A stretch of DNA of 64,000 nucleotides from a virus (taxonomy: Duplodnaviria > Caudoviricetes), in IMG/VR virus record IMGVR_UViG_3300035520_000607, positions 59,604 to 123,603 of that record; one strand, written 5' to 3'. The number at the start of each line of letters is the position of its first letter. Position 1 is the stretch's first letter. The position numbers were made by a program, and so were the translations under genes. Positions 53,928-64,000 of this stretch are shown one piece after another. The notes under the pieces are model-generated. The model was not told the origin of the DNA. It saw only the letters and a list, made by a program, of their open reading frames with translations, and searched no databases.

Positions 53928-54998
53928 CTATTTTTTATTTCTACATTCTTTACAAATGCTATACCAGCCATCTTTTGATGTACTATTCTTTGAAAAGAAA
54001 CGATTAGTAGCCAATTTTACTTTTCCGCATCTAGAGCATTGTTTCCAATTTCCTTTTTCTTTATAAGTAAAATGCCAATCTAAATAATCTTCTTTTGCTT
54101 GTTCCGCAAGTAATTTAGGTATTTTATTTCTCCATAATGATGATAAATATTCAACAGAGTGTCTAACTCCAAATTCTCTATCTAATAGATCTTGGATTTC
54201 CGCATTAGAACGTCCATCAGTTTTATAAAGCAATAACTTATAATAAAGCGGATATGCTTCTTTTAAAGTCTCTTCAATTAAATTATCTAAATCTAACATT
54301 GTGTAATATAAATCACTGCTAAATTTTCCATAAGAGTCTTCTTTTAATGCCGCATAATTACGCAATAGCGCAGAAATATGAGTCCAATTAAAAAATGATA
54401 TAATGCCATCGCTAATTGGCTCACCAAATTCATTTATTTCTATATGTTCAGTTAAATCTACTTTTGATAATCCTTTAAAAGGATTTCCAGTAGGGTTAGA
54501 TGTTAAAGGTTGTTTTATTGTATTTTTTATAGTATATTGTTCTTGATGCATTTCTATTAGTTGTTTTTTTAATAAAAAACGCTTTTTACCTGTTGCTTTT
54601 TGTTCCATTTTCTCAACTGCGGAAATACTATCCTTTAAAGCGCGAAGGTCTGCCATTGCCGCCAAATCCGCATCTGTAATTGATACCTTAGGAGTTAAAA
54701 GTACATTTTTATCATTTATTATTAAATTATATATTCCATCTTCGCCATTCTCAAATTTACTTACTAATCCTTGATATGAAGTTTCTCTTTTATTTATTGT
54801 TATCATTCTATTGTCTGTAATAATCTCTTTTTTCTTTTTCTCTTCAGGAGTCATTGCAGTTACAATATAATTTGCTAGATATTCTAAATATTTTTTATTT
54901 TTAAATTGTTCTTGTGGTAAGTTAGATACAAAATCAGCTCTTTCTTTTGCTGTCTTTAATGTAAAATCTAATTTTATATTTATAGATTCTTGTTGCAT
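53928..54998 (-). CDS. Hypothetical protein with HTH-like segment and C-terminal CxxC Zn finger
   Basis: GRSNAEIQDLL HTH-like; CSRC...CKEC. Confidence 0.65.
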   Translation of the reverse strand: MQQESINIKLDFTLKTAKERADFVSNLPQEQFKNKKYLEYLANYIVTAMTPEEKKKKEIITDNRMITINKRETSYQGLVSKFENGEDGIYNLIINDKNVLLTPKVSITDADLAAMADLRALKDSISAVEKMEQKATGKKRFLLKKQLIEMHQEQYTIKNTIKQPLTSNPTGNPFKGLSKVDLTEHIEINEFGEPISDGIISFFNWTHISALLRNYAALKEDSYGKFSSDLYYTMLDLDNLIEETLKEAYPLYYKLLLYKTDGRSNAEIQDLLDREFGVRHSVEYLSSLWRNKIPKLLAEQAKEDYLDWHFTYKEKGNWKQCSRCGKVKLATNRFFSKNSTSKDGWYSICKECRNKK

Positions 54999-55996: not shown

Positions 55997-56152
55997 ATGG
56001 CAAGAAGAAAGTCGCTAAGAATAAGTACACATTTATTACCTACACCTAAAAAGATAGTTAAGAGAGGGATTTACGAAATGGTTTCCGCCGCAACAGGTGG
56101 AAATACTAAACCTAGAGATTATGGGAAAAGAATAAGAGAAGGGAAATATTAG
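55997..56152 (+). CDS. Small basic protein, 51 aa (not in track)
   Basis: AAGGA RBS, MARRKSLRISTH...EGKY*. Confidence 0.55.
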   Translation: MARRKSLRISTHLLPTPKKIVKRGIYEMVSAATGGNTKPRDYGKRIREGKY

Positions 56153-56153
56153 T

Positions 56154-56339
56154 ATGTTAAAAATTTTGATATTACTTTTTATTAGTATAAGTATGTTTCT
56201 TGGATCAAGAGCTGCAGCTATGGGAGATTTATCTTTTAAAGAATTAAAATGGTATGATAAAATAATTAGAGTCTGCTTTTATGCGGAAATGGGTTTAGAA
56301 ATGGTATTATTAATTCTTATTTGGTGGGAGATATTGTAA
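56154..56339 (+). CDS. Small membrane protein
   Basis: Two hydrophobic segments in 61 aa. Confidence 0.6.
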   Translation: MLKILILLFISISMFLGSRAAAMGDLSFKELKWYDKIIRVCFYAEMGLEMVLLILIWWEIL

Positions 56340-56576
56340 TTTGAAATTGAAAAATGATTTGGAAATTTCTGTAATTTAGATTTGAAAAATAACTTGGAGA
56401 TTTTTTTGTCGAGATCATACCATTTTTTAAAAAATTGTCAAAAATTTTCCCAAAAACCTACCCCCACCTTTACTTCCTATTCTATAAAAAATTTTTCTGG
56501 TACGCTATGTAGTAACCGCAAAGAGAATCCCTAAGCAAACGCTTCAGCACTCTCGTCTTCTATCAATGCTTTCCAC

Positions 56577-56600
56577 TTTACATGTAAATTTACATGTAAA
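56577..56600. repeat. Tandem palindrome TTTACATGTAAA x2
   Basis: Further copies at 57549 and 59859, TTGACATGTAAA variants at 57646, 57704, 57743. Confidence 0.8.
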
Positions 56601-56744
56601 CAATTTGACAATCAAAAGTTCAACTTTACACATCATTTACATTTTCCTAAATTAAAAAATAAAATGTAATTATTATTACTTTTCTATTGACTCTATTATT
56701 CTATTGTGCTATAATTAAAATGTAATAAGGAAGAAGATGTTAAA

Positions 56745-57236
56745 ATGAAAAAAAGATTATTCTTAGACATGGATGGTACAATAGCAAAATTTAATAGTAA
56801 AAGAAATGCACTTGCTAGATTTGATAATGAAGTAGGATTCTTTTCAAGTCTTAAACCTTTTGCTCATTTAGATAGTATCAATAGTATGATACAAAATAAT
56901 GAAGTAGAAGTGTATGTCATTTCCGCAAGTCCGAATGAACAAGCGGATAAAGATAAAATGACTTGGCTAAAAAAATATTTACCAACACTAAAAGAAAGTA
57001 ATGTTTGTTTTTGTAGATTAGGACAAAACAAAGCACAAGAAATAAAGAAACAATTAAACATTACTATTGATAGTAATTGTTATCTATTAGATGATTATAC
57101 TAAGAACCTAATCGAATGGAAAGATAATAAGGGCATTGGAATAAAAAGACTAACTTCTCTTGCTGATAACTCAACTAAGAGATGGACAGGATTAAACATT
57201 AAAGACTTAAATCAGTTGTCAACTTTACTAATTTAA
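56745..57236 (+). CDS. HAD-superfamily 5'(3')-deoxyribonucleotidase (NT5C-like)
   Basis: LFLDMDGT motif I, ISA motif II, K..WL..YLP, LLDDYTKNL. Confidence 0.85.
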   Translation: MKKRLFLDMDGTIAKFNSKRNALARFDNEVGFFSSLKPFAHLDSINSMIQNNEVEVYVISASPNEQADKDKMTWLKKYLPTLKESNVCFCRLGQNKAQEIKKQLNITIDSNCYLLDDYTKNLIEWKDNKGIGIKRLTSLADNSTKRWTGLNIKDLNQLSTLLI

Positions 57237-57318
57237 AATGCGGAAATGGGGTTGACAATGTTAAGTCTAGGTGCTATAATAAGTATGTAAGATAGATAAG
57301 AAAAGGAAGTTGATTTAA

Positions 57319-57525
57319 ATGAAAAAACAAAGAAAACATTATTTAAAAGAAAGTGTTGAAACAACATTAGTATTAATACAAACAATGATTATTATCTTTT
57401 GTGGTATGACAATAGATAACATAGGTAACAACTTGTATGATAAAATGCTTGTTGCTTGTATAATAATCTTTATACTAATTTATAAAATATTATTAAAATA
57501 TTCAAGAACTTTCAATGAGATGTAA
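57319..57525 (+). CDS. Small two-TM membrane protein
   Basis: 68 aa, own promoter and RBS. Confidence 0.7.
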   Translation: MKKQRKHYLKESVETTLVLIQTMIIIFCGMTIDNIGNNLYDKMLVACIIIFILIYKILLKYSRTFNEM

Positions 57526-58006
57526 AGTTCTTTTTCTCTTGACAGAAACTTTACATGTAAAGTAAAGGAATGCGGAAATAGCTTTCAGCGTCGCATCTGC
57601 GAACATGATGCGACGAATTTAGGAACAAAAATACTTTACGCTTTTTTGACATGTAAAATGTATGTCAATTTACATCTGCTTGACATCCTAAAATGACACC
57701 GACTTGACATGTAAAGGAAATGTAAAGAAGATGATCAGTCAATTGACATGTAAATAGATTGTAAAGCAAACAATTTGTTCGATTTCATTTTTATTTTTGT
57801 TTTTTATTAGAAGTCATGCAAGACCTTTTGACACACGGGGCGGCGTTGCCGCATCTGTCAACCTGATGTAAAAGAGTAGCGTAAACCTGATGTAAGCCGA
57901 ACAATTTGTTCGATAAAAATAAAATTAAAAATTTTTTTAAAAAAATGTTGACATTTCTAGTTAGATTTGGTAGTATATAATTGTAATAAGAAAGGAATTG
58001 ATAGTT

Positions 58007-58156
58007 ATGTGGACTATAAAATATTTAAATAAAAATACTGGAAAGGTTATGGTAGAACAACTTGTAGCAAAGAAAGAAAGCACTGCTAAACAATGGGCAA
58101 AACAATTTGTTTTACATCATAATGAGTTTGAAATATTAGCAATTTTACCTTGCTAA
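58007..58156 (+). CDS. Small protein, 49 aa (not in track)
   Basis: MWTIKYLNKNTGK...; promoter plus AAAGGA RBS. Confidence 0.65.
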   Translation: MWTIKYLNKNTGKVMVEQLVAKKESTAKQWAKQFVLHHNEFEILAILPC

Positions 58157-58231
58157 TATTTCAAAAAAAGTATTGACATTTATAACTAATTTTGATAATA
58201 TATAATTGTAATAAGAAAGGAATTGATAGTT

Positions 58232-58489
58232 ATGTTAAATCAAGTAATTTTAGTAGGAAGAGTTGAGGACATCAACTTAGAAAGTAATTTAATAATGTTA
58301 AAAATATCTCAAAGGGGGACTGAAGATAGTTATGTTAATTGTATCTATCCTGATAGTATGTACGATACAGTTAATGAATACATCTATTTAGAACAAGTCT
58401 TAGGAATTAAAGGACGTCTTGAAACAATAGAAAATGAAACTATTGTAAAAATTGATAAAATTTCAATGCTTACATCAGGAGGTAATTAA
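58232..58489 (+). CDS. Short SSB-like OB-fold protein
   Basis: MLNQVILVGRV...LGIKGRLET; lacks acidic C-terminal tail. Confidence 0.7.
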   Translation: MLNQVILVGRVEDINLESNLIMLKISQRGTEDSYVNCIYPDSMYDTVNEYIYLEQVLGIKGRLETIENETIVKIDKISMLTSGGN

Positions 58490-58490
58490 A

Positions 58491-58640
58491 ATGAGATTAG
58501 TTGATAACATAGAAAATAAGAGTTATAAATCTTCTAAAATTGTAATCCGTATGTTATTAAAAAATTTATACGATACTTACAAAAAAGAAGGACTTCTAAC
58601 TGGAGTTATAAAAATAAAAGACACTTGGTACATCGGCTAA
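58491..58640 (+). CDS. Small hypothetical protein
   Basis: AGGAGG RBS before MRLVDN. Confidence 0.6.
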   Translation: MRLVDNIENKSYKSSKIVIRMLLKNLYDTYKKEGLLTGVIKIKDTWYIG

Positions 58641-58699
58641 GTGTCTTTTTGAGTACCATCATCTACCTTGACACGCCTGGCGGCGTTGCAGTCCGCAAT

Positions 58700-58729
58700 A
58701 TTATAACATAGTTAGGTTAGGTTTGTCAA
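58700..58729 (-). promoter_or_regulatory. Antisense sigma-70 promoter into GC-rich element (others: 59968-59997, 62231-62260, 63028-63056, 63966-63994)
   Basis: Perfect TTGACA-N17/18-TATAAT with extended -10 TG, no RBS/ORF downstream. Confidence 0.75.
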
Positions 58730-58883
58730 GAGAAAAAATATAAAAAATTGTAAATTTTACATTTTTCCTAAAATTAAAAAAATAAAAAAATTTTTTAAAA
58801 AAGTGTTGACATTAAAACCATAATTTGGTAGTATATAATTGTAATAAGAAAGGGATACCTGCTAAGGTATCAAGGTGTTAAAA

Positions 58884-59036
58884 ATGAATATTTATGTTGC
58901 TATGATTAAATTAGAAGATGGAGTTGTAGAAATGCCACAAACTAGATACTACTCACAAGCTAAAAAAGATATGGAATATCTAAATAAAGAATATAAAGAT
59001 GTTAAAGTTGGAGATGCTTATATTAGAATTTTCTAA
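58884..59036 (+). CDS. Small protein, 50 aa (not in track)
   Basis: MNIYVAMIKLEDG...; promoter and AAGGTG RBS. Confidence 0.6.
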   Translation: MNIYVAMIKLEDGVVEMPQTRYYSQAKKDMEYLNKEYKDVKVGDAYIRIF

Positions 59037-59121
59037 TATAAGCAACTTCTAATAAAAAAATGTTGACTTTTATAATAAATAATGATATTATATATATGTA
59101 ATAAGAAAGGAATTGATTATA

Positions 59122-59232
59122 ATGTTAGATTATTTAGAATTTTGTGAAAAATATGATTTAGAAAGTTGTGCTATATATGTAAATTATAGAGATACATATA
59201 TAGAAATTGAAAATAGAAAAGAGGTTATCTAA
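59122..59232 (+). CDS. Small protein, 36 aa (not in track)
   Basis: MLDYLEFCEKYDL...; same leader/RBS as neighbours. Confidence 0.5.
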   Translation: MLDYLEFCEKYDLESCAIYVNYRDTYIEIENRKEVI

Positions 59233-59233
59233 T

Positions 59234-59494
59234 ATGCTAAAAATAATATATAATGAAAAACCATATTATAGTAATGGTGGGGAATATAATGACCCTACAA
59301 CAAAAGACTTGACTATTACTTTTGATGATGAGGCAAGTACTCCTGAAATACTAGGACAAGTTATAAGATTGTTACAATTTATGACATATCCAGTCAATAG
59401 CAAAAAACAATTATATGATATAATTGATAGAATAGTTGATAGTAACTCTTTAATAGTTGATGACCTAGAAGAAGAAAATCAAGAACTTAATTAA
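59234..59494 (+). CDS. Acidic hypothetical protein
   Basis: Start MLKIIY after GAGG. Confidence 0.65.
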   Translation: MLKIIYNEKPYYSNGGEYNDPTTKDLTITFDDEASTPEILGQVIRLLQFMTYPVNSKKQLYDIIDRIVDSNSLIVDDLEEENQELN

Positions 59495-59584
59495 AAAAGT
59501 TCTTGATTTCTTGAATTAAATATAATATAATATAAATGTAATAAGGAAAGCCACCTTATAAAAATTAGAAAGTGAGTGATAAAA

Positions 59585-59749
59585 ATGGCAAATAAAAAAA
59601 GAAATACTAATATGAAGAAAGTTGTAGTTGATAAAAATGCTACTCAATTTATGAGAACAGCAGCAAACCTTGCAAGAAAAGGCAAAACTAATAAAAAACT
59701 ACATGGAAGAAATGCTAACCCAAAAGCAGCAAAATATGCTATCAACTAG
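59585..59749 (+). CDS. Highly basic 54-aa protein (not in track)
   Basis: MANKKRNTNMKKVVVDKNATQFMRTAANLARKGKTNKKLHGRNANPKAAKYAIN*; followed by hairpin/T-tract. Confidence 0.65.
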   Translation: MANKKRNTNMKKVVVDKNATQFMRTAANLARKGKTNKKLHGRNANPKAAKYAIN

Positions 59750-60216
59750 CATATTTTTTTATGGATGTCAAGTTTACATTTCCTTTACATTTAGATCTGA
59801 GTGTCGCGTAGTTGTAGGTCACGCGACGTTTTTGGGAGGATTAGATCTTTACAAAATATTTACATGTAAAACTGATGTCAATAGACAGATCCTTGACATC
59901 CCATAATTACACTGGACACACGCGGCGGCGTTGCTATTTCCGCCATCGACCAAGGGGACGCCGCAATATTATACCACATTGCTATTGAGTTTGTCAATAC
60001 TAAAAATGCAATTTTTTAATAAAATTTACATTTTCCTAAAATTAAAAATTTTTAAAAAAAGTGTTGACTTTTTTATGTAGATTTAGTAGTATATAATTGT
60101 ATTAAGAAAGAGACAACAAAATAAAAAAAATATTAAAAAAATTAAAAAAAAATGTTGACTTTTACTTAATAGTTTGTTATCATAATAATGTAATAAGAAA
60201 GAGAGAGATAAAATTT

Positions 60217-60960
60217 ATGATTAAAAAAATTGATTTAAAAAATGAGAGATATTTAATGTTTATAGACACTGAAACAATAGGTAGTCTATTCGTTAAGGAA
60301 AGTGTTCTACCTTTTGAAATAGGTATGAAAGTATATGACACTGAACAAAAGAAAGTTGTTAAAGAAAAAAGTTATCTAGTAAGAAAATTCTTTAATAATA
60401 AATATGTAATGTTATCTACATTTAGTGCTACAAAATATCCTAACTATTTTGAAAAACTAGACACTGATAAAAGATATAAAACATATAGTGTTAAAGATAT
60501 TGCTACTGATATTGAAAAAATAATATCAAGATATAATATAAAGGTTATGGTAGCACATAATGGAAACTTTGATAAAACTGCTATGGCAAGATTATTTGAA
60601 GAGTTTGGTACTGCTAACCCATTTGAAAATATAGATTTACTAGATACTATGGAATTATCAAAAGTAATAACATTTAGTAAAGATTATACTGATTATTGTA
60701 TAGCACATAAAGATAGATTAAATTCTATGAAAGAAAGTTGTTTTATCACTAATAGTGGTAGAGTAAGAACAACAGCACAGGCTATTTATTGCTATATCAC
60801 TGATAATGCTGATTTTGAGGAGGCACATACTGGACTTGAAGATATAGATATTGAAATATGTATATACCAAACAAGCATGGACTTATTAGGAAACACAATA
60901 GTAAATCTAAATACTAGTCCTAGTTGGAAAGATTACTCAAAAGTAATAGAAGAAGATTAA
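60217..60960 (+). CDS. DEDDh 3'-5' exonuclease
   Basis: FIDTET (ExoI), AHNGNFD (ExoII), AHTGLED (ExoIII). Confidence 0.88.
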   Translation: MIKKIDLKNERYLMFIDTETIGSLFVKESVLPFEIGMKVYDTEQKKVVKEKSYLVRKFFNNKYVMLSTFSATKYPNYFEKLDTDKRYKTYSVKDIATDIEKIISRYNIKVMVAHNGNFDKTAMARLFEEFGTANPFENIDLLDTMELSKVITFSKDYTDYCIAHKDRLNSMKESCFITNSGRVRTTAQAIYCYITDNADFEEAHTGLEDIDIEICIYQTSMDLLGNTIVNLNTSPSWKDYSKVIEED

Positions 60961-61088
60961 AAAATCTTCTTCTACATACTAAAAAAGTGTTGACAAAAAA
61001 TAATAAAAATGCTATCATAATAATGTAATAAAGGTTAAGCCAAAACCTTTATATATAAAATAAAAAATAAGAAATGGAGTTGATTAAA

Positions 61089-61472
61089 ATGGCACAAACA
61101 AAATTAACAAAGGTAAACAAAATTAATATGTTACTAGAAATGAGTGAGGTACAAGCAAATCTTGAATTAGTAGAATTTCTTGAAAATGAAAAAGCATTAA
61201 TTCAAAAGAAAAATGCTAACAAAACTGCTAAAAAATCTAATGAAGATACAATAGTATGTGATATGTTAGTTGAGGAGTTAGCAAAAGTTGGACATCCTTG
61301 CACTATTACTGAATTAATGACATCTAGTGAAGTTATTCAAAACTATGTATTAGAAAATGGCAAACCATTAACTAATCAAAAAATCACTGCAATGTTTAAA
61401 TCTATACTAGATATAAGAGTAGTAAAAATTCCTAAAGGAAAATCTAATCTATACAGTGTAAAAGAAGTGTAA
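61089..61472 (+). CDS. Winged-helix-like DNA-binding protein, paralogue A
   Basis: MAQTKLTK..., TITELM, LTNQKITA; similar to 63430..63810. Confidence 0.65.
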   Translation: MAQTKLTKVNKINMLLEMSEVQANLELVEFLENEKALIQKKNANKTAKKSNEDTIVCDMLVEELAKVGHPCTITELMTSSEVIQNYVLENGKPLTNQKITAMFKSILDIRVVKIPKGKSNLYSVKEV

Positions 61473-61537
61473 ATTAACACTTCTTTTTTTTATGTAAAAA
61501 AAGTATTGACAAGCACCCCTAAATGTGATATAATGGT

Positions 61538-61569
61538 CGTGTCGCATCTGACTGCTGCGACACGTTTTT
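61538..61569 (+). terminator. GC-rich hairpin plus T-tract immediately after a promoter
   Basis: CGTGTCGCA-N9-TGCGACACG-TTTTT starting 4 nt after TATAAT. Confidence 0.65.
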
Positions 61570-61857
61570 AGAATAACAATAGCCCTAAAAAATAATGCGG
61601 CAAGCAAAATGAGTTAAAAAAATTTTAGCAATTTTCCTAAAAATGAACACTTTATCGTAAAAAAGATATTTTAGCTTTAAAATAGAAAATAATCTACAAA
61701 ATCAATAGCAAAAAGAAAATGAGAGACTTAAAAACAATGCGGAAAGTGGCTTTAATGCCCGTTAACCGACACCGCCGCATCTATTAATTGCCTTTCCGCA
61801 AATTTTTTGTTATAATTATAATGTAATAAATAATAGAATAGAAAGGAAAATAGAACG

Positions 61858-62049
61858 ATGAAGATTTATGTCTTAGTTACTTCTTCAGTAATTACTGGCG
61901 TTTACTCTTCTCTTGACTTACTCACCGCTGACCTTACTACAAAATTTAAATCCGAGTCACTAGATAGAGTAGAAGAATGAGATTTAGATAAAGGTTTTGT
62001 AAAAAATGTTAATGTATCTAAACAAACTATTATTACTGTTGAAGATTAA
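61858..62049 (+). CDS. Small protein, 63 aa (TGA=Trp at 61978)
   Basis: AAAGGA RBS; MKIYVLV..GVYSS...RVEE*DLDKG...ED*. Confidence 0.6.
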
Positions 62050-62403
62050 TTAATGATACTTATTGACTACGGTCAAGAAGTATCGGTTCTATTTTCACTA
62101 GACCCATCAAGTATTCACTTGACAAAAAATGGGTAAAATATTTTTTAAAAAATTTTCCTAAAATTCCTTACCTTCCGCGGCTTTACCTAGAGCCGCATTT
62201 TTTTTGTCTAGCGTCATGAGACTCCGCAATATTATACCACATAGCCTTTAGTTTTGTCAAGAATAAATTTTTATTTTTTACACTTTTTTTGTAAAACTCC
62301 TAAAATTAAAAAAATTTAAAAAAAGTGTTGACATTTATAATTAATTTTGATAGTATATAATTGTAATAAGAAAGGGACACGAAAGTGTTAAAGGTAATTA
62401 ATT

Positions 62404-62586
62404 ATGGTACTATACTTACATTCAATTTATCACGGGGGAAACAAATATTTTTCATTAGATTATTGGGATAAAGAAGATAAATGCTTCCATACTGTTATGG
62501 ACTGTATTGGTGGAGTTATGCCAATGAAAACTCTTTATGGCATAGCAAGAATTTTAGGAGCAAGAAAAGTAGTGCTTGACATTTAA
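62404..62586 (+). CDS. Small hypothetical protein
   Basis: 60 aa, own promoter. Confidence 0.65.
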   Translation: MVLYLHSIYHGGNKYFSLDYWDKEDKCFHTVMDCIGGVMPMKTLYGIARILGARKVVLDI

Positions 62587-62634
62587 GCACTAACTTGCTA
62601 TAATAATAATGTAATAAGAAAGGAATTGGTAAAA

Positions 62635-62946
62635 ATGAAAGAAAAATTAAATGATATAGTATGTGAAAGTTCTAGTGACTATGATATTTTAAATGAAGTT
62701 TATAATTATATTGAAAAATTAGAAAGAGAAAATAAAAAATTAAAAAAAGTATTTATTGTAAGTCAAAATAGTGATGACTCTGATATGATAACAAATGTAT
62801 TAGTAGTTGCTGATAATTGGGAAAAAGCCAAAGAATTAGGAGTTAAAGCATTTCAAAGAGATATCTTTTACGATTATTTTAATACTTATCCTGTTATAGT
62901 AAAAAGACTTGATTTAACAAGGGAATACGTAGTCACAACCTATTAA
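62635..62946 (+). CDS. Hypothetical protein
   Basis: ATG after AAAGGA leader. Confidence 0.65.
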   Translation: MKEKLNDIVCESSSDYDILNEVYNYIEKLERENKKLKKVFIVSQNSDDSDMITNVLVVADNWEKAKELGVKAFQRDIFYDYFNTYPVIVKRLDLTREYVVTTY

Positions 62947-63429
62947 TAAAATAGAATGTAAACTAGACAATTAGTTTACATTTTTTCTTGCTCGGCCCGC
63001 GCACATTTGATGCGGGCCGAATTCATAATTATACCATAAGTTTGAAAATTTGTCAAGTATTTTTTGCAAAAATTTTCAAATTTTACATTTCCTGAAACGG
63101 ATCTGTCAAGGGAATGTAAACTTTACATTTTTATTTACACTCAAAAATTTTTAAAAAATTTTAAATTTTTTATTGACTTTTTAAATAAAATTTTATACAA
63201 TATAAATGTAATAAATAAGAAATATAAAAAAGCAAAAAATATTAAAAAAAATGTTGACTTTCTTAATTAAATTTTATATAATATAAATGTAATAAAGAAA
63301 GTGATTAAAAAGTATTTAAAAAAAATAAAAAAAAATGCTTGACAATAAAACTTATTTATTATATAATATAAATGTAATAAAGGAAAAGCCAAACCTATAT
63401 TACATAAATAAGAAATGGAGTTGATTATT

Positions 63430-63810
63430 ATGGCACAAACAAAATTAACAAAGAAAGACAAAATCAAAATGTTATTAGGACTAAATGAGGTTCAAGAAAA
63501 TCCTGAATTAGTATCATTCCTTGAAAACGAATATGCTTTACTTGAAAAGAAAGCAAGTTCAAAATCAAATAAGACTAATGTTGAAAATGAAAAGGTTGCT
63601 GAAATCTTAGTTGCTGAATTAGCAAAAATGGAAAAACCTGTAACTATCAGTGAACTAATGAACGGAAGTGAAGTTATCAAAAACTATGTATTAGAAAATG
63701 GTAAAACATTAACTAATCAAAAGATAACATCTATTTTCAAAACATTAGTTGAAAATAAAACAATAGTTCATGAAACTAAAGGCAAAAATTCTTTATATAT
63801 GGTTGCCTAG
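63430..63810 (+). CDS. Winged-helix-like DNA-binding protein, paralogue B
   Basis: MAQTKLTK..., TISELM, LTNQKITSIFKTLV; three tandem promoters upstream. Confidence 0.65.
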   Translation: MAQTKLTKKDKIKMLLGLNEVQENPELVSFLENEYALLEKKASSKSNKTNVENEKVAEILVAELAKMEKPVTISELMNGSEVIKNYVLENGKTLTNQKITSIFKTLVENKTIVHETKGKNSLYMVA

Positions 63811-64000
63811 TATAAAGTGTTTGACAACTACACAATAAATAAGTTGTAAAAAGAGTGTAAAGAAATTTACATTCTTTTTTTTTTTTTATAAAAAAGTATT
63901 GACAAACCTATTTAAATGTGATATAATGAGCGGCCGGCGTTCGTGCGCTTCAGGCCGAATCCGCAATTATACCATAGTTTTGACTTTTTGTCAAGCAAAA

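Follow-up and report, generated by a model that had tools for sequence, protein, structure and literature searches.

Introduction

Among short countertranscripts at the 3' ends of phage early genes the classical example is the OOP RNA of lambda, a leftward transcript of 77 nt without an open reading frame (ORF), which is initiated at the strong promoter pO past the 3' end of a rightward early gene and is complementary to the 3' end of its mRNA. A synthetic part consisting of a terminator and an antisense promoter represses the upstream gene in proportion to how strong the antisense promoter is, and works by way of colliding polymerases and of antisense RNA (Brophy and Voigt 2016, PMC4731013). 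RNA polymerase can remain on the DNA after intrinsic termination and, by sliding and flipping, begin transcription anew on the other strand (Harden et al. 2020, PMC6978322), and about 20% of the intrinsic terminators of E. coli have nearby antisense initiation, B. subtilis being similar (PMC6978322). In this study a window of 64,000 nt was analysed, namely bases 59604–123603 of a 123.6-kb phage contig (IMG/VR record IMGVR_UViG_3300035520_000607); "the window" refers throughout to this whole stretch, and positions without further label are counted from its first base. Its early region contains five perfect promoters which point back at the preceding genes and lead into no ORF. On balance we favour the view that these five elements are natural terminator/antisense-promoter modules in a host-takeover-like early region, where they would damp, time or insulate the early transcription units.

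The host-takeover module of SPO1, a large Firmicutes phage, comprises many small early genes with strong sigma-A consensus promoters; to our knowledge, no antisense orphan promoters have been described in this module. In coliphages P2/186, face-to-face promoters with starts a few tens of bp apart reportedly interfere with one another through occupancy and elongation, as Callen et al. are said to have found in 2004. Both of these promoters drive operons, and they decide between lysis and lysogeny. The PeSL cassettes of T4-like phages are units of a stem-loop terminator and an early promoter (Arbiol et al. 2010, PMC2839356; Comeau et al. 2014, PMC4122927).

Orphan antisense promoters of the early region

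Between 55 and 64 kb the window holds small forward-strand ORFs which lack family matches, except for three proteins (nucleotidyltransferase-like, NT5C-like and DEDD-exonuclease-like). Most of these early units have a strong promoter of their own, and the forward gene promoters carry a conserved leader and a ribosome-binding site (RBS). This forward-strand early module resembles that of SPO1, with which it shares many small orphan early ORFs, each with a strong sigma-A-type promoter, but to whose genes it shows no protein homology.

On the opposite strand five promoters of the form TTGACA-N17/18-TGnTATAAT were found, each matching the consensus at 12/12 positions and possessing the TG. Within 7.5 kb the perfect promoters number five on the minus strand and four on the plus strand, against about 0.0005 per strand expected from base composition. 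The antisense promoters and two forward orphans are as follows.

58700–58729, minus strand: antisense promoter 1, TTGACA-N18-TGTTATAAT, then ATTGCGG; no ORF downstream
59968–59997, minus strand: antisense promoter 2, TTGACA-N18-TGGTATAAT, then ATTGCGG
62231–62260, minus strand: antisense promoter 3, located 3' of the 63-aa ORF 61858–62049
63028–63056, minus strand: antisense promoter 4, its -10 box 8 nt from the terminator hairpin 62993–63019
63966–63994, minus strand: antisense promoter 5, face-to-face with the forward orphan promoter 63899–63927
63899–63927, plus strand: forward orphan promoter, TTGACA-N17-TGATATAAT, opening straight onto the hairpin 63931–63957
61506–61569, plus strand: forward orphan promoter and terminator (promoter 61506–61534, then hairpin 61538–61564 and a T run)

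An earlier, sequence-only reading of this DNA had reported the five antisense promoters at these coordinates, and its description of their surroundings was borne out. Four are followed by (AT)TGCGG, the exception being promoter 4, which is followed by TATGAATTCGG. The first four stand back-to-back with forward promoters at 58806, 60064, 62328 and 63173, at distances of about 75–115 bp, and the words TCCTAAAAT or TCCTGAAAC lie between the divergent pairs. No credible ORF follows any of the five under translation tables 11 and 4, which were read side by side; the only nearby minus-strand ORFs of at least 25 aa begin inside the promoters, for example at the TTG of TTGACA. Minus-strand ORFs of 137 and 84 aa inside two paralogous genes, seen under table 4, were considered and rejected: their frame has stops only opposite Tyr codons, so that such ORFs are expected by composition.

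In this genome the antisense -10 box is 8–30 nt from a hairpin or directly abuts a 19-nt box described below. The predicted transcript of promoter 1 contains the complement of the box at 58670–58688 and continues to a bidirectional AT-rich terminator at 58616–58650. Downstream of promoter 2 lie a stem, GCGGCGT...ACGCCGC (59924–59965), and the complement of the box at 59915–59933.

Within 61506–61857 the perfect forward promoter and its terminator are followed by about 290 nt of non-coding DNA, in which 61739–61746 can form a long-range stem with 61790–61797. ORF 61858 has a promoter whose -35 overlaps with a T run of this stretch. The whole may encode a non-coding RNA of the forward strand or act as an attenuator.

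Conservation in related genomes

Relatives were gathered with the 247-aa exonuclease-like gene at 60217–60960, which yielded 16 loci of 59–83% protein identity. With the window included, orphan antisense promoters were present in 10/17 genomes or contigs, in 21 distinct copies; nine distinct related contigs carry perfect TTGACAAA...TGTGGTATAAT promoters on the strand opposite the early genes. In all 21 copies TTGACAA and (T/G)(G/A)TG(G/T)TATAAT are invariant, with variable spacers and A/T-rich upstream tracts. This class, TTGACAAA...TGTGGTATAAT without leader or RBS, is distinct from the forward gene promoters, and across whole related genomes its TGGTATAAT subclass is nearly restricted to the early region. 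In most relatives the antisense promoter is followed by an A-rich stretch and then by a GC-rich hairpin, the distance from the -10 box to this terminator hairpin usually being 8–9 nt.

The promoter modules also follow orthologous genes, belonging to a family of 63–72 aa and to a winged-helix-like family of 115–132 aa. Their representatives in the window are listed here.

61858–62049, plus strand: 63-aa early ORF, read with TGA as Trp; the gene 5' of antisense promoter 3
63415–63810, plus strand: 131-aa early protein, predicted to form a long helix and a winged helix; paralogue at 61074–61472

The first family has further members in the related loci L011, L012 and L015 (L011 and L012 being 53% identical), and the orthologous ORFs of these three loci, of 68–72 aa, each have an orphan antisense promoter behind them. 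In the 63-aa ORF and its orthologues TGA is read through (table 4, TGA=W). The second family is represented by the two window paralogues (131/132 aa, 59% identical), by L009, L011 and L015, and by two copies in L012; orphan promoter modules lie 3' of its members in five genomes. Neither paralogue has a Pfam or PHROG match. The predicted fold of the family is a long helix followed by a winged helix (mean predicted local distance difference test score, pLDDT, 82.5), and Foldseek matches were weak but consistent (SmtB/ArsR, PadR, Pex and a viral winged-helix protein; E 0.005–0.06). Modules are retained behind orthologous genes at 45–55% protein identity.

The face-to-face pair of orphan promoters is kept in three genomes, namely the window, L011 (7998–8093) and L012 (4916–5008). 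The -10 boxes of these pairs are 34–38 nt apart with one GC hairpin in between, which in the window is the hairpin 63931–63957. As in P2/186, the promoters converge and the gene of a small DNA-binding protein is adjacent, here a predicted winged helix. The arrangement differs from P2/186 in that neither promoter has an ORF of its own and a terminator hairpin separates the two.

The presence of a promoter at the 3' end of a unit and its orientation are conserved between genomes; the sequence downstream of it is not. As a class the promoters are maintained in relatives. The sequence-only reading would have been refuted by a lack of conservation of the islands; the islands do recur in relatives, in a form other than the one it supposed. 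Perfect promoters also occur in Phass-1 and Enterococcus phage EF1; no sign of antisense orphans was seen there, the 21 of Phass-1 all lying on one strand, a count not set against gene orientation. When the intergenic region 5' of the 247-aa gene was aligned across relatives, rearrangement proved too extensive for the antisense promoter to stand out as a simple insertion.

With respect to the described terminator/antisense-promoter systems (PMC4731013, PMC6978322), the units have in common a predicted forward terminator followed by a back-pointing constitutive promoter, and the expected effects are alike: interference, antisense RNA and possibly polymerase recapture. Unlike those systems, the phage promoters are of perfect consensus and, in relatives, fixed at 8–9 nt from the hairpin; the modules recur one to five times per early region, and in some of them the promoter faces a forward orphan; and the space between promoter and ORF often contains an AT-rich terminator-like hairpin.

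A 19-nt box and other repeated words

Three GC-rich islands had been described as sharing GACAC(A)CG..GCGGCGTTG, and this motif is present at 57830, 58670 and 59915. It belongs to a box of 19 nt with the consensus GAYACRCCWGGNNNCGTTG, of which a profile search of the window genome and relatives found 36 copies, 30 of them on the forward strand.

57830–57848, plus strand: box GACACACGGGGCGGCGTTG, without antisense promoter
58670–58688, plus strand: box GACACGCCTGGCGGCGTTG, a profile copy; antisense promoter 58700 would transcribe its complement
59915–59933, plus strand: box GACACACGCGGCGGCGTTG, a profile copy; antisense promoter 59968 would transcribe its complement

The box is asymmetric and confined to the early region. 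GATC-containing words often precede it; on its 3' side come a TCCYAAAAY word, an A/T tract and the forward -35, the last usually 40–50 nt downstream. Relatives have the box in the interval that separates the antisense from the forward promoter, upstream of both, whereas in this genome the antisense promoters 58700 and 59968 are on the other side of it. The sequence downstream of the antisense promoters is therefore not conserved, and the islands, taken earlier for the content of minus-strand RNAs, are instead copies of a forward intergenic box which in relatives stands behind the antisense promoter. Presumably the box binds a protein. As a sigma-54 promoter (TGGC..TTGC) it was rejected by inspection, the GG-to-GC spacing being 7 nt where it should be 10.

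A few box copies form inverted pairs flanking a terminator, for example L009 7627 and 7740. The promoter-less box of the window is flanked by a direct repeat, GTAAAGCAAACAATTTGTTCGAT / GTAAGCCGAACAATTTGTTCGAT, at 57767–57790 and 57895–57918, inside a 400-nt non-coding stretch rich in TTKACATGTMAA palindromes. This 12-bp palindrome occurs eight times in the genome (window 56577, 56589, 57550, 57646, 57704, 57743 and 59859, and contig C1:779), in the early region only and often in tandem at a 12-bp phase. It is present in 13/14 related loci, one half-site being the -35 hexamer, and looks like an operator.

The overall layout, a composite of terminator stem-loop and early promoter between small ORFs of a variable region, is of the PeSL type. 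Like the PeSL, the composite units are repeated between small orphan ORFs of a plastic early region, and gene content changes at cassette boundaries. The PeSL differ in being forward-only and in belonging to phages of Gram-negative hosts; the units described here add the 19-nt box, the palindromic operator-like words and, in a subset, the inverted orphan promoter. Since terminator-promoter repeats mediate shuffling in T4-like phages (PMC4122927), the antisense promoters might be cassettes inverted by recombination in a hyperplastic early region, by-products with little or no selected function. The gene content between cassettes does vary among relatives, and this genome departs from its relatives in where the promoter stands with respect to the box. 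Such by-products would, however, hardly make up a sequence class of their own without leader or RBS, keep every hexamer perfect while the spacers diverge, hold a fixed distance to the hairpin in relatives and stay behind orthologous genes at the protein identities given above, and we consider this explanation improbable.

GC-rich hairpins as probable forward terminators

The sequence-only reading had interpreted the GC-rich islands as a family of small RNAs, or promoter-coupled DNA elements, defined by the minus-strand promoters. The stems to which it drew attention are real (62177–62196 and 62993–63019), and GGCCGAAT, noted as common to two islands, was found at 63015 and 63953. A covariance model (R1) was built on the minus-strand reading of 16 promoter-linked hairpins, and a search of the window and all loci with this model gave 60 matches, 48 of them distinct, all in one orientation. 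Stem cells were paired in 78.5% of cases versus 31–40% in slid controls, and compensatory change on both sides was seen in 7/9 stem pairs. Covariance modelling across relatives, which had been proposed as a check, supports the pairing, yet the stems proved to be selected in the plus-strand reading.

This strand assignment comes from the G·U pairs, of which the stems of all copies contain 42 in the plus and 13 in the minus reading, and those of the promoter-linked copies alone 18 versus 2; strand composition would skew this ratio only about 1.1-fold, as estimated from the skews. The plus reading is also the more stable one in 36/48 hairpins and the minus reading in nine. From the asymmetry in G·U pairs and stability it therefore follows that the hairpins evolve as forward RNA structures.

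Their position is that of terminators, at a median of 54–64 nt past the stop of a forward ORF and 100–150 nt before the next forward promoter. The 8 nt 3' of the stem contain a mean of 4.4–4.5 T; promoter-linked copies often read AAAATTTT at this point. An antisense promoter is absent from 31/48 hairpins, many of which carry a canonical plus-strand U tract such as CGCGACGTTTTTTGA, TTTTTTGA or GCGCGCCATTTTTTAT; the other 17/48 have an opposite-strand TTGAC[AT]-N16-18-TATAAT within 48 nt, usually 8–9 nt from the stem. An AT-rich forward terminator precedes 42/48 GC hairpins, and the GC hairpin is therefore usually the second of a tandem pair. In our reading the GC hairpins are intrinsic terminators of the forward early units, or at the least structures of their 3' ends, and are not minus-strand RNA genes. 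The predicted terminators discussed in the text are the following.

63931–63957, plus strand: GC-rich hairpin of the terminator class (R1), 32.9 bits, E 8e-6; -14.4 (plus) versus -10.1 (minus) kcal/mol
62993–63019, plus strand: GC-rich hairpin of the terminator class (CGGCCCGC...GCGGGCCG), 43.9 bits, E 3e-9; second terminator after ORF 62626–62946
62956–62987, either strand: AT-rich palindromic terminator directly after ORF 62626–62946, predicted from its sequence to be usable in both directions
62177–62205, plus strand: canonical forward terminator, GCGGCTTTACCTAGAGCCGC, then A and eight T
59803–59833, plus strand: forward terminator after ORF 59585–59749, read directly as GTCGCGT...ACGCGAC, then GTTTTT
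58616–58650, either strand: AT-rich terminator overlapping the end of ORF 58491–58640, with U-rich tails both ways

Predicted minus-strand transcripts

Read on the minus strand, the RNA would have the hairpin at its 5' end; UCAA or CUCG comes next instead of a U tract and, in about half of the cases, an AT-rich terminator-like hairpin after that. The -10 box is 60–185 nt from the upstream stop codon. Antisense transcription is predicted to stop before the ORF in some modules (58700, 63028), while others have no predicted stop before it.

This geometry would suit discrete, abundant early small RNAs, in each of which an A/U-rich linker containing GUAAA words would join a GC hairpin at the 5' end to a terminator hairpin at the 3' end. 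Their role would be in trans, as decoys, sponges or anti-defence RNAs. In relatives such an RNA would begin at the base of a stable hairpin, 8–9 nt from the -10 box, which is a 5'-protecting geometry; an AT hairpin within 130 nt in 9/17 promoter-linked modules predicts RNAs of about 50–110 nt; and the modules are conserved. Minus-direction terminators are, however, no commoner where a promoter is present (9/17 promoter-linked versus 20/31 promoter-less hairpins, p = 0.54), so that terminators dedicated to a small RNA were rejected. The stems are constrained in the plus reading also in the promoter-linked copies, whose hairpin sequences vary freely among copies and phages. The transcribed content differs as well, being the complement of the box for two promoters of this genome and that of a terminator in relatives; orthologous minus transcripts behind the 63–72-aa gene have no structure in common beyond the complement of the terminator hairpin.

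Searches for known RNA functions pointed the same way. Rfam 15 gave nothing at gathering score in the window; with permissive E-value filters, 9.7 kb (window 56000–64000 and the next 1.7 kb) returned two chance-level matches (E 0.7–0.9), neither of them credible. A trans-acting anti-leader RNA was rejected: when the five predicted minus RNAs were paired with 13 early leaders, the best duplexes were no better than those of shuffles. VIPR vrRNA arrays (bioRxiv 10.64898/2026.04.26.720920), with their GGY/NN 5-nt repeats, were likewise rejected, since neither strand of the genome, over its whole length, contains a run of at least three GGYNN units. The free sequence variation among copies argues against a solitary-repeat RNA anti-CRISPR. 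A small-RNA family defined by these promoters thus appears unlikely: the hairpins share one orientation, carry their T tail and pair better on the plus strand, and some two-thirds of them have no antisense promoter.

A 5' hairpin on a leftward transcript also recalls the put RNA of HK022. On such a scheme a terminator-resistant polymerase would produce long leftward transcripts, cross and shut off the early region and enter the minus-strand gene block which starts at 54998. All minus-strand orphan promoters do aim at this large block, and in relatives the RNA would have a stable hairpin at its extreme 5' end. But the stems are selected in the plus reading, not in that of the transcript; the block has a perfect promoter of its own (55069–55041); neither a two-stem structure nor an Rfam match is present, orthologous transcripts sharing one hairpin; and 3–9 kb of antisense transcription would be needed. 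We regard it as very improbable.

Lambda OOP remains the classical point of reference for a short transcript of this kind. It differs in being a single copy which overlaps the coding end of cII, whereas the elements described here are present in several copies of variable content, would often overlap only the 3' untranslated region (UTR) or terminators, and have no sequence similarity to OOP.

Proposed mechanism

From the anatomy of the modules, their conservation and the strand of the hairpins, which can be observed directly, we infer that the promoters fire and that their transcripts have effects. Each transcription unit would end in an AT-rich terminator, usually with a GC-rich hairpin as second terminator, followed in most cases by the box and the next forward promoter. 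At a subset of unit ends, a perfect promoter TTGACAA-N-TRTGGTATAAT points back at the preceding unit. Host RNA polymerase would initiate there and transcribe back through the 3' end of the upstream unit, giving antisense transcripts complementary to the 3' end of the mRNA and collisions with oncoming polymerases. Some of these transcripts would stop within about 50–110 nt at the AT hairpin, and others would reach the upstream ORF. Specific early genes would in this way be damped or limited in time and neighbouring units insulated, and polymerase released at the terminator may be recaptured by the adjacent promoter. Among the interpretations offered by the sequence-only reading, the antisense brake on upstream early ORFs is the one favoured here; its promoters are real and non-random, and its small-RNA family was not upheld.

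Several points weigh against this antisense-brake model. The efficiency of the promoter-linked hairpins as terminators is uncertain, their tail often being a weak U tract, AAAATTTT. About half of the modules have a terminator-like AT hairpin on the ORF side of the GC hairpin, and antisense RNA could then affect only the 3' UTR/terminator region. An antisense brake does not account for the forward orphan promoters at 61506 and 63899. Finally, escape from a perfect promoter may be slow where the start region is rich in GC, and this would suit polymerase binding as well as RNA production.

This last point leads to a role at the level of DNA or polymerase, in which the elements would be traps or roadblocks for polymerase, sources of supercoiling for the divergent forward promoters or sites of R-loop replication priming. 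Promoters that combine a perfect -35 with a TRTG extended -10 and a start region rich in GC are in general expected to bind polymerase very tightly and to release it slowly. The first four promoters are divergent from forward promoters at about 75–115 bp, two polymerases cannot bind simultaneously at face-to-face pairs with 34–38 nt between the -10 boxes, and iteron-like 12-bp palindromes are clustered in the same early region. The origin of lactococcal phage c2 requires a non-coding early transcript. Against this, five or more origins in 6 kb are implausible, no AT-rich unwinding element keeps a constant place with respect to the promoters, little supercoiling arises from short transcripts, and the sequence gives nothing to separate such a role from that of an RNA-producing promoter. 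We therefore hold a DNA-level role to be quite unlikely.

A bolder form of the antisense-brake model is that of "U-turn" modules, in which a perfect promoter placed at a fixed distance from a terminator would recapture the released polymerase and send it back, so that early transcription supplies its own antisense brake; with the face-to-face pairs by the winged-helix gene, this would amount to a built-in timer or switch for host-takeover genes. We put it forward tentatively, as a doubtful but not far-fetched extension.

Other features of the genome

The genome has a GC content of 25–35%, and its portal protein is closest to those of large Enterococcus, Bacillus and Lactococcus phages and of the gut phage Phass-1. 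The 3' terminal 232 bases or so of the contig are duplicated at its start, and the early region therefore extends about 1.2 kb past the end of the window. Many related contigs (loci L009–L023) stop within a few kb of the early region, which fits either assembly-breaking repeats or true genome termini nearby. A scan of the window for tRNA and tmRNA genes found none, and no public sequencing run was listed for window 57500–64000. DNA similarity against 50,697 phage records was limited to one match, a 70-nt promoter/RBS of Staphylococcus and Mammaliicoccus phages. One further early gene had a weak database match.

62626–62946, plus strand: 106-aa early ORF with a weak PHROG match to Gp5.9-like RecBCD inhibitors (E 0.004, no single stretch significant)

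The most over-represented 4-mer genome-wide is GCGG/CCGC, with 579 copies versus about 274 expected. GCGG occurs in several codon phases in the context T-GCGG-AAA (for example window 1564, 19440, 30309 and 38226); mini-palindromes GCGG-N3-5-CCGC were counted 22 times and the reverse arrangement, CCGC-N3-5-GCGG, once. Beyond the window end (L002, contig C1 780–1160) lies a 380-nt non-coding tail of the early region with several GC-rich hairpins. It includes a 43-nt element, ATGCGGGA...TCTCCGCAT, which has a second copy at C1:9499–9541.

Significance

GC-rich islands in AT-rich early regions of phages should first be tested as forward terminators, by orientation and G·U asymmetry, before small RNAs are called. 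If the promoters fire as predicted, the modules would represent, in natural, conserved and recurrent form, a design otherwise met mainly in synthetic biology and single-molecule work, in which an antisense promoter behind a terminator tunes the upstream gene. They would then illustrate how a lytic virus limits or times potentially toxic early genes without a protein repressor, and this phage group would offer a clean system for asking whether polymerase recycling at terminators operates in vivo. The U-turn modules, if they operate as suggested, would be the first natural, selected case of post-termination recycling, so far seen mainly in vitro.

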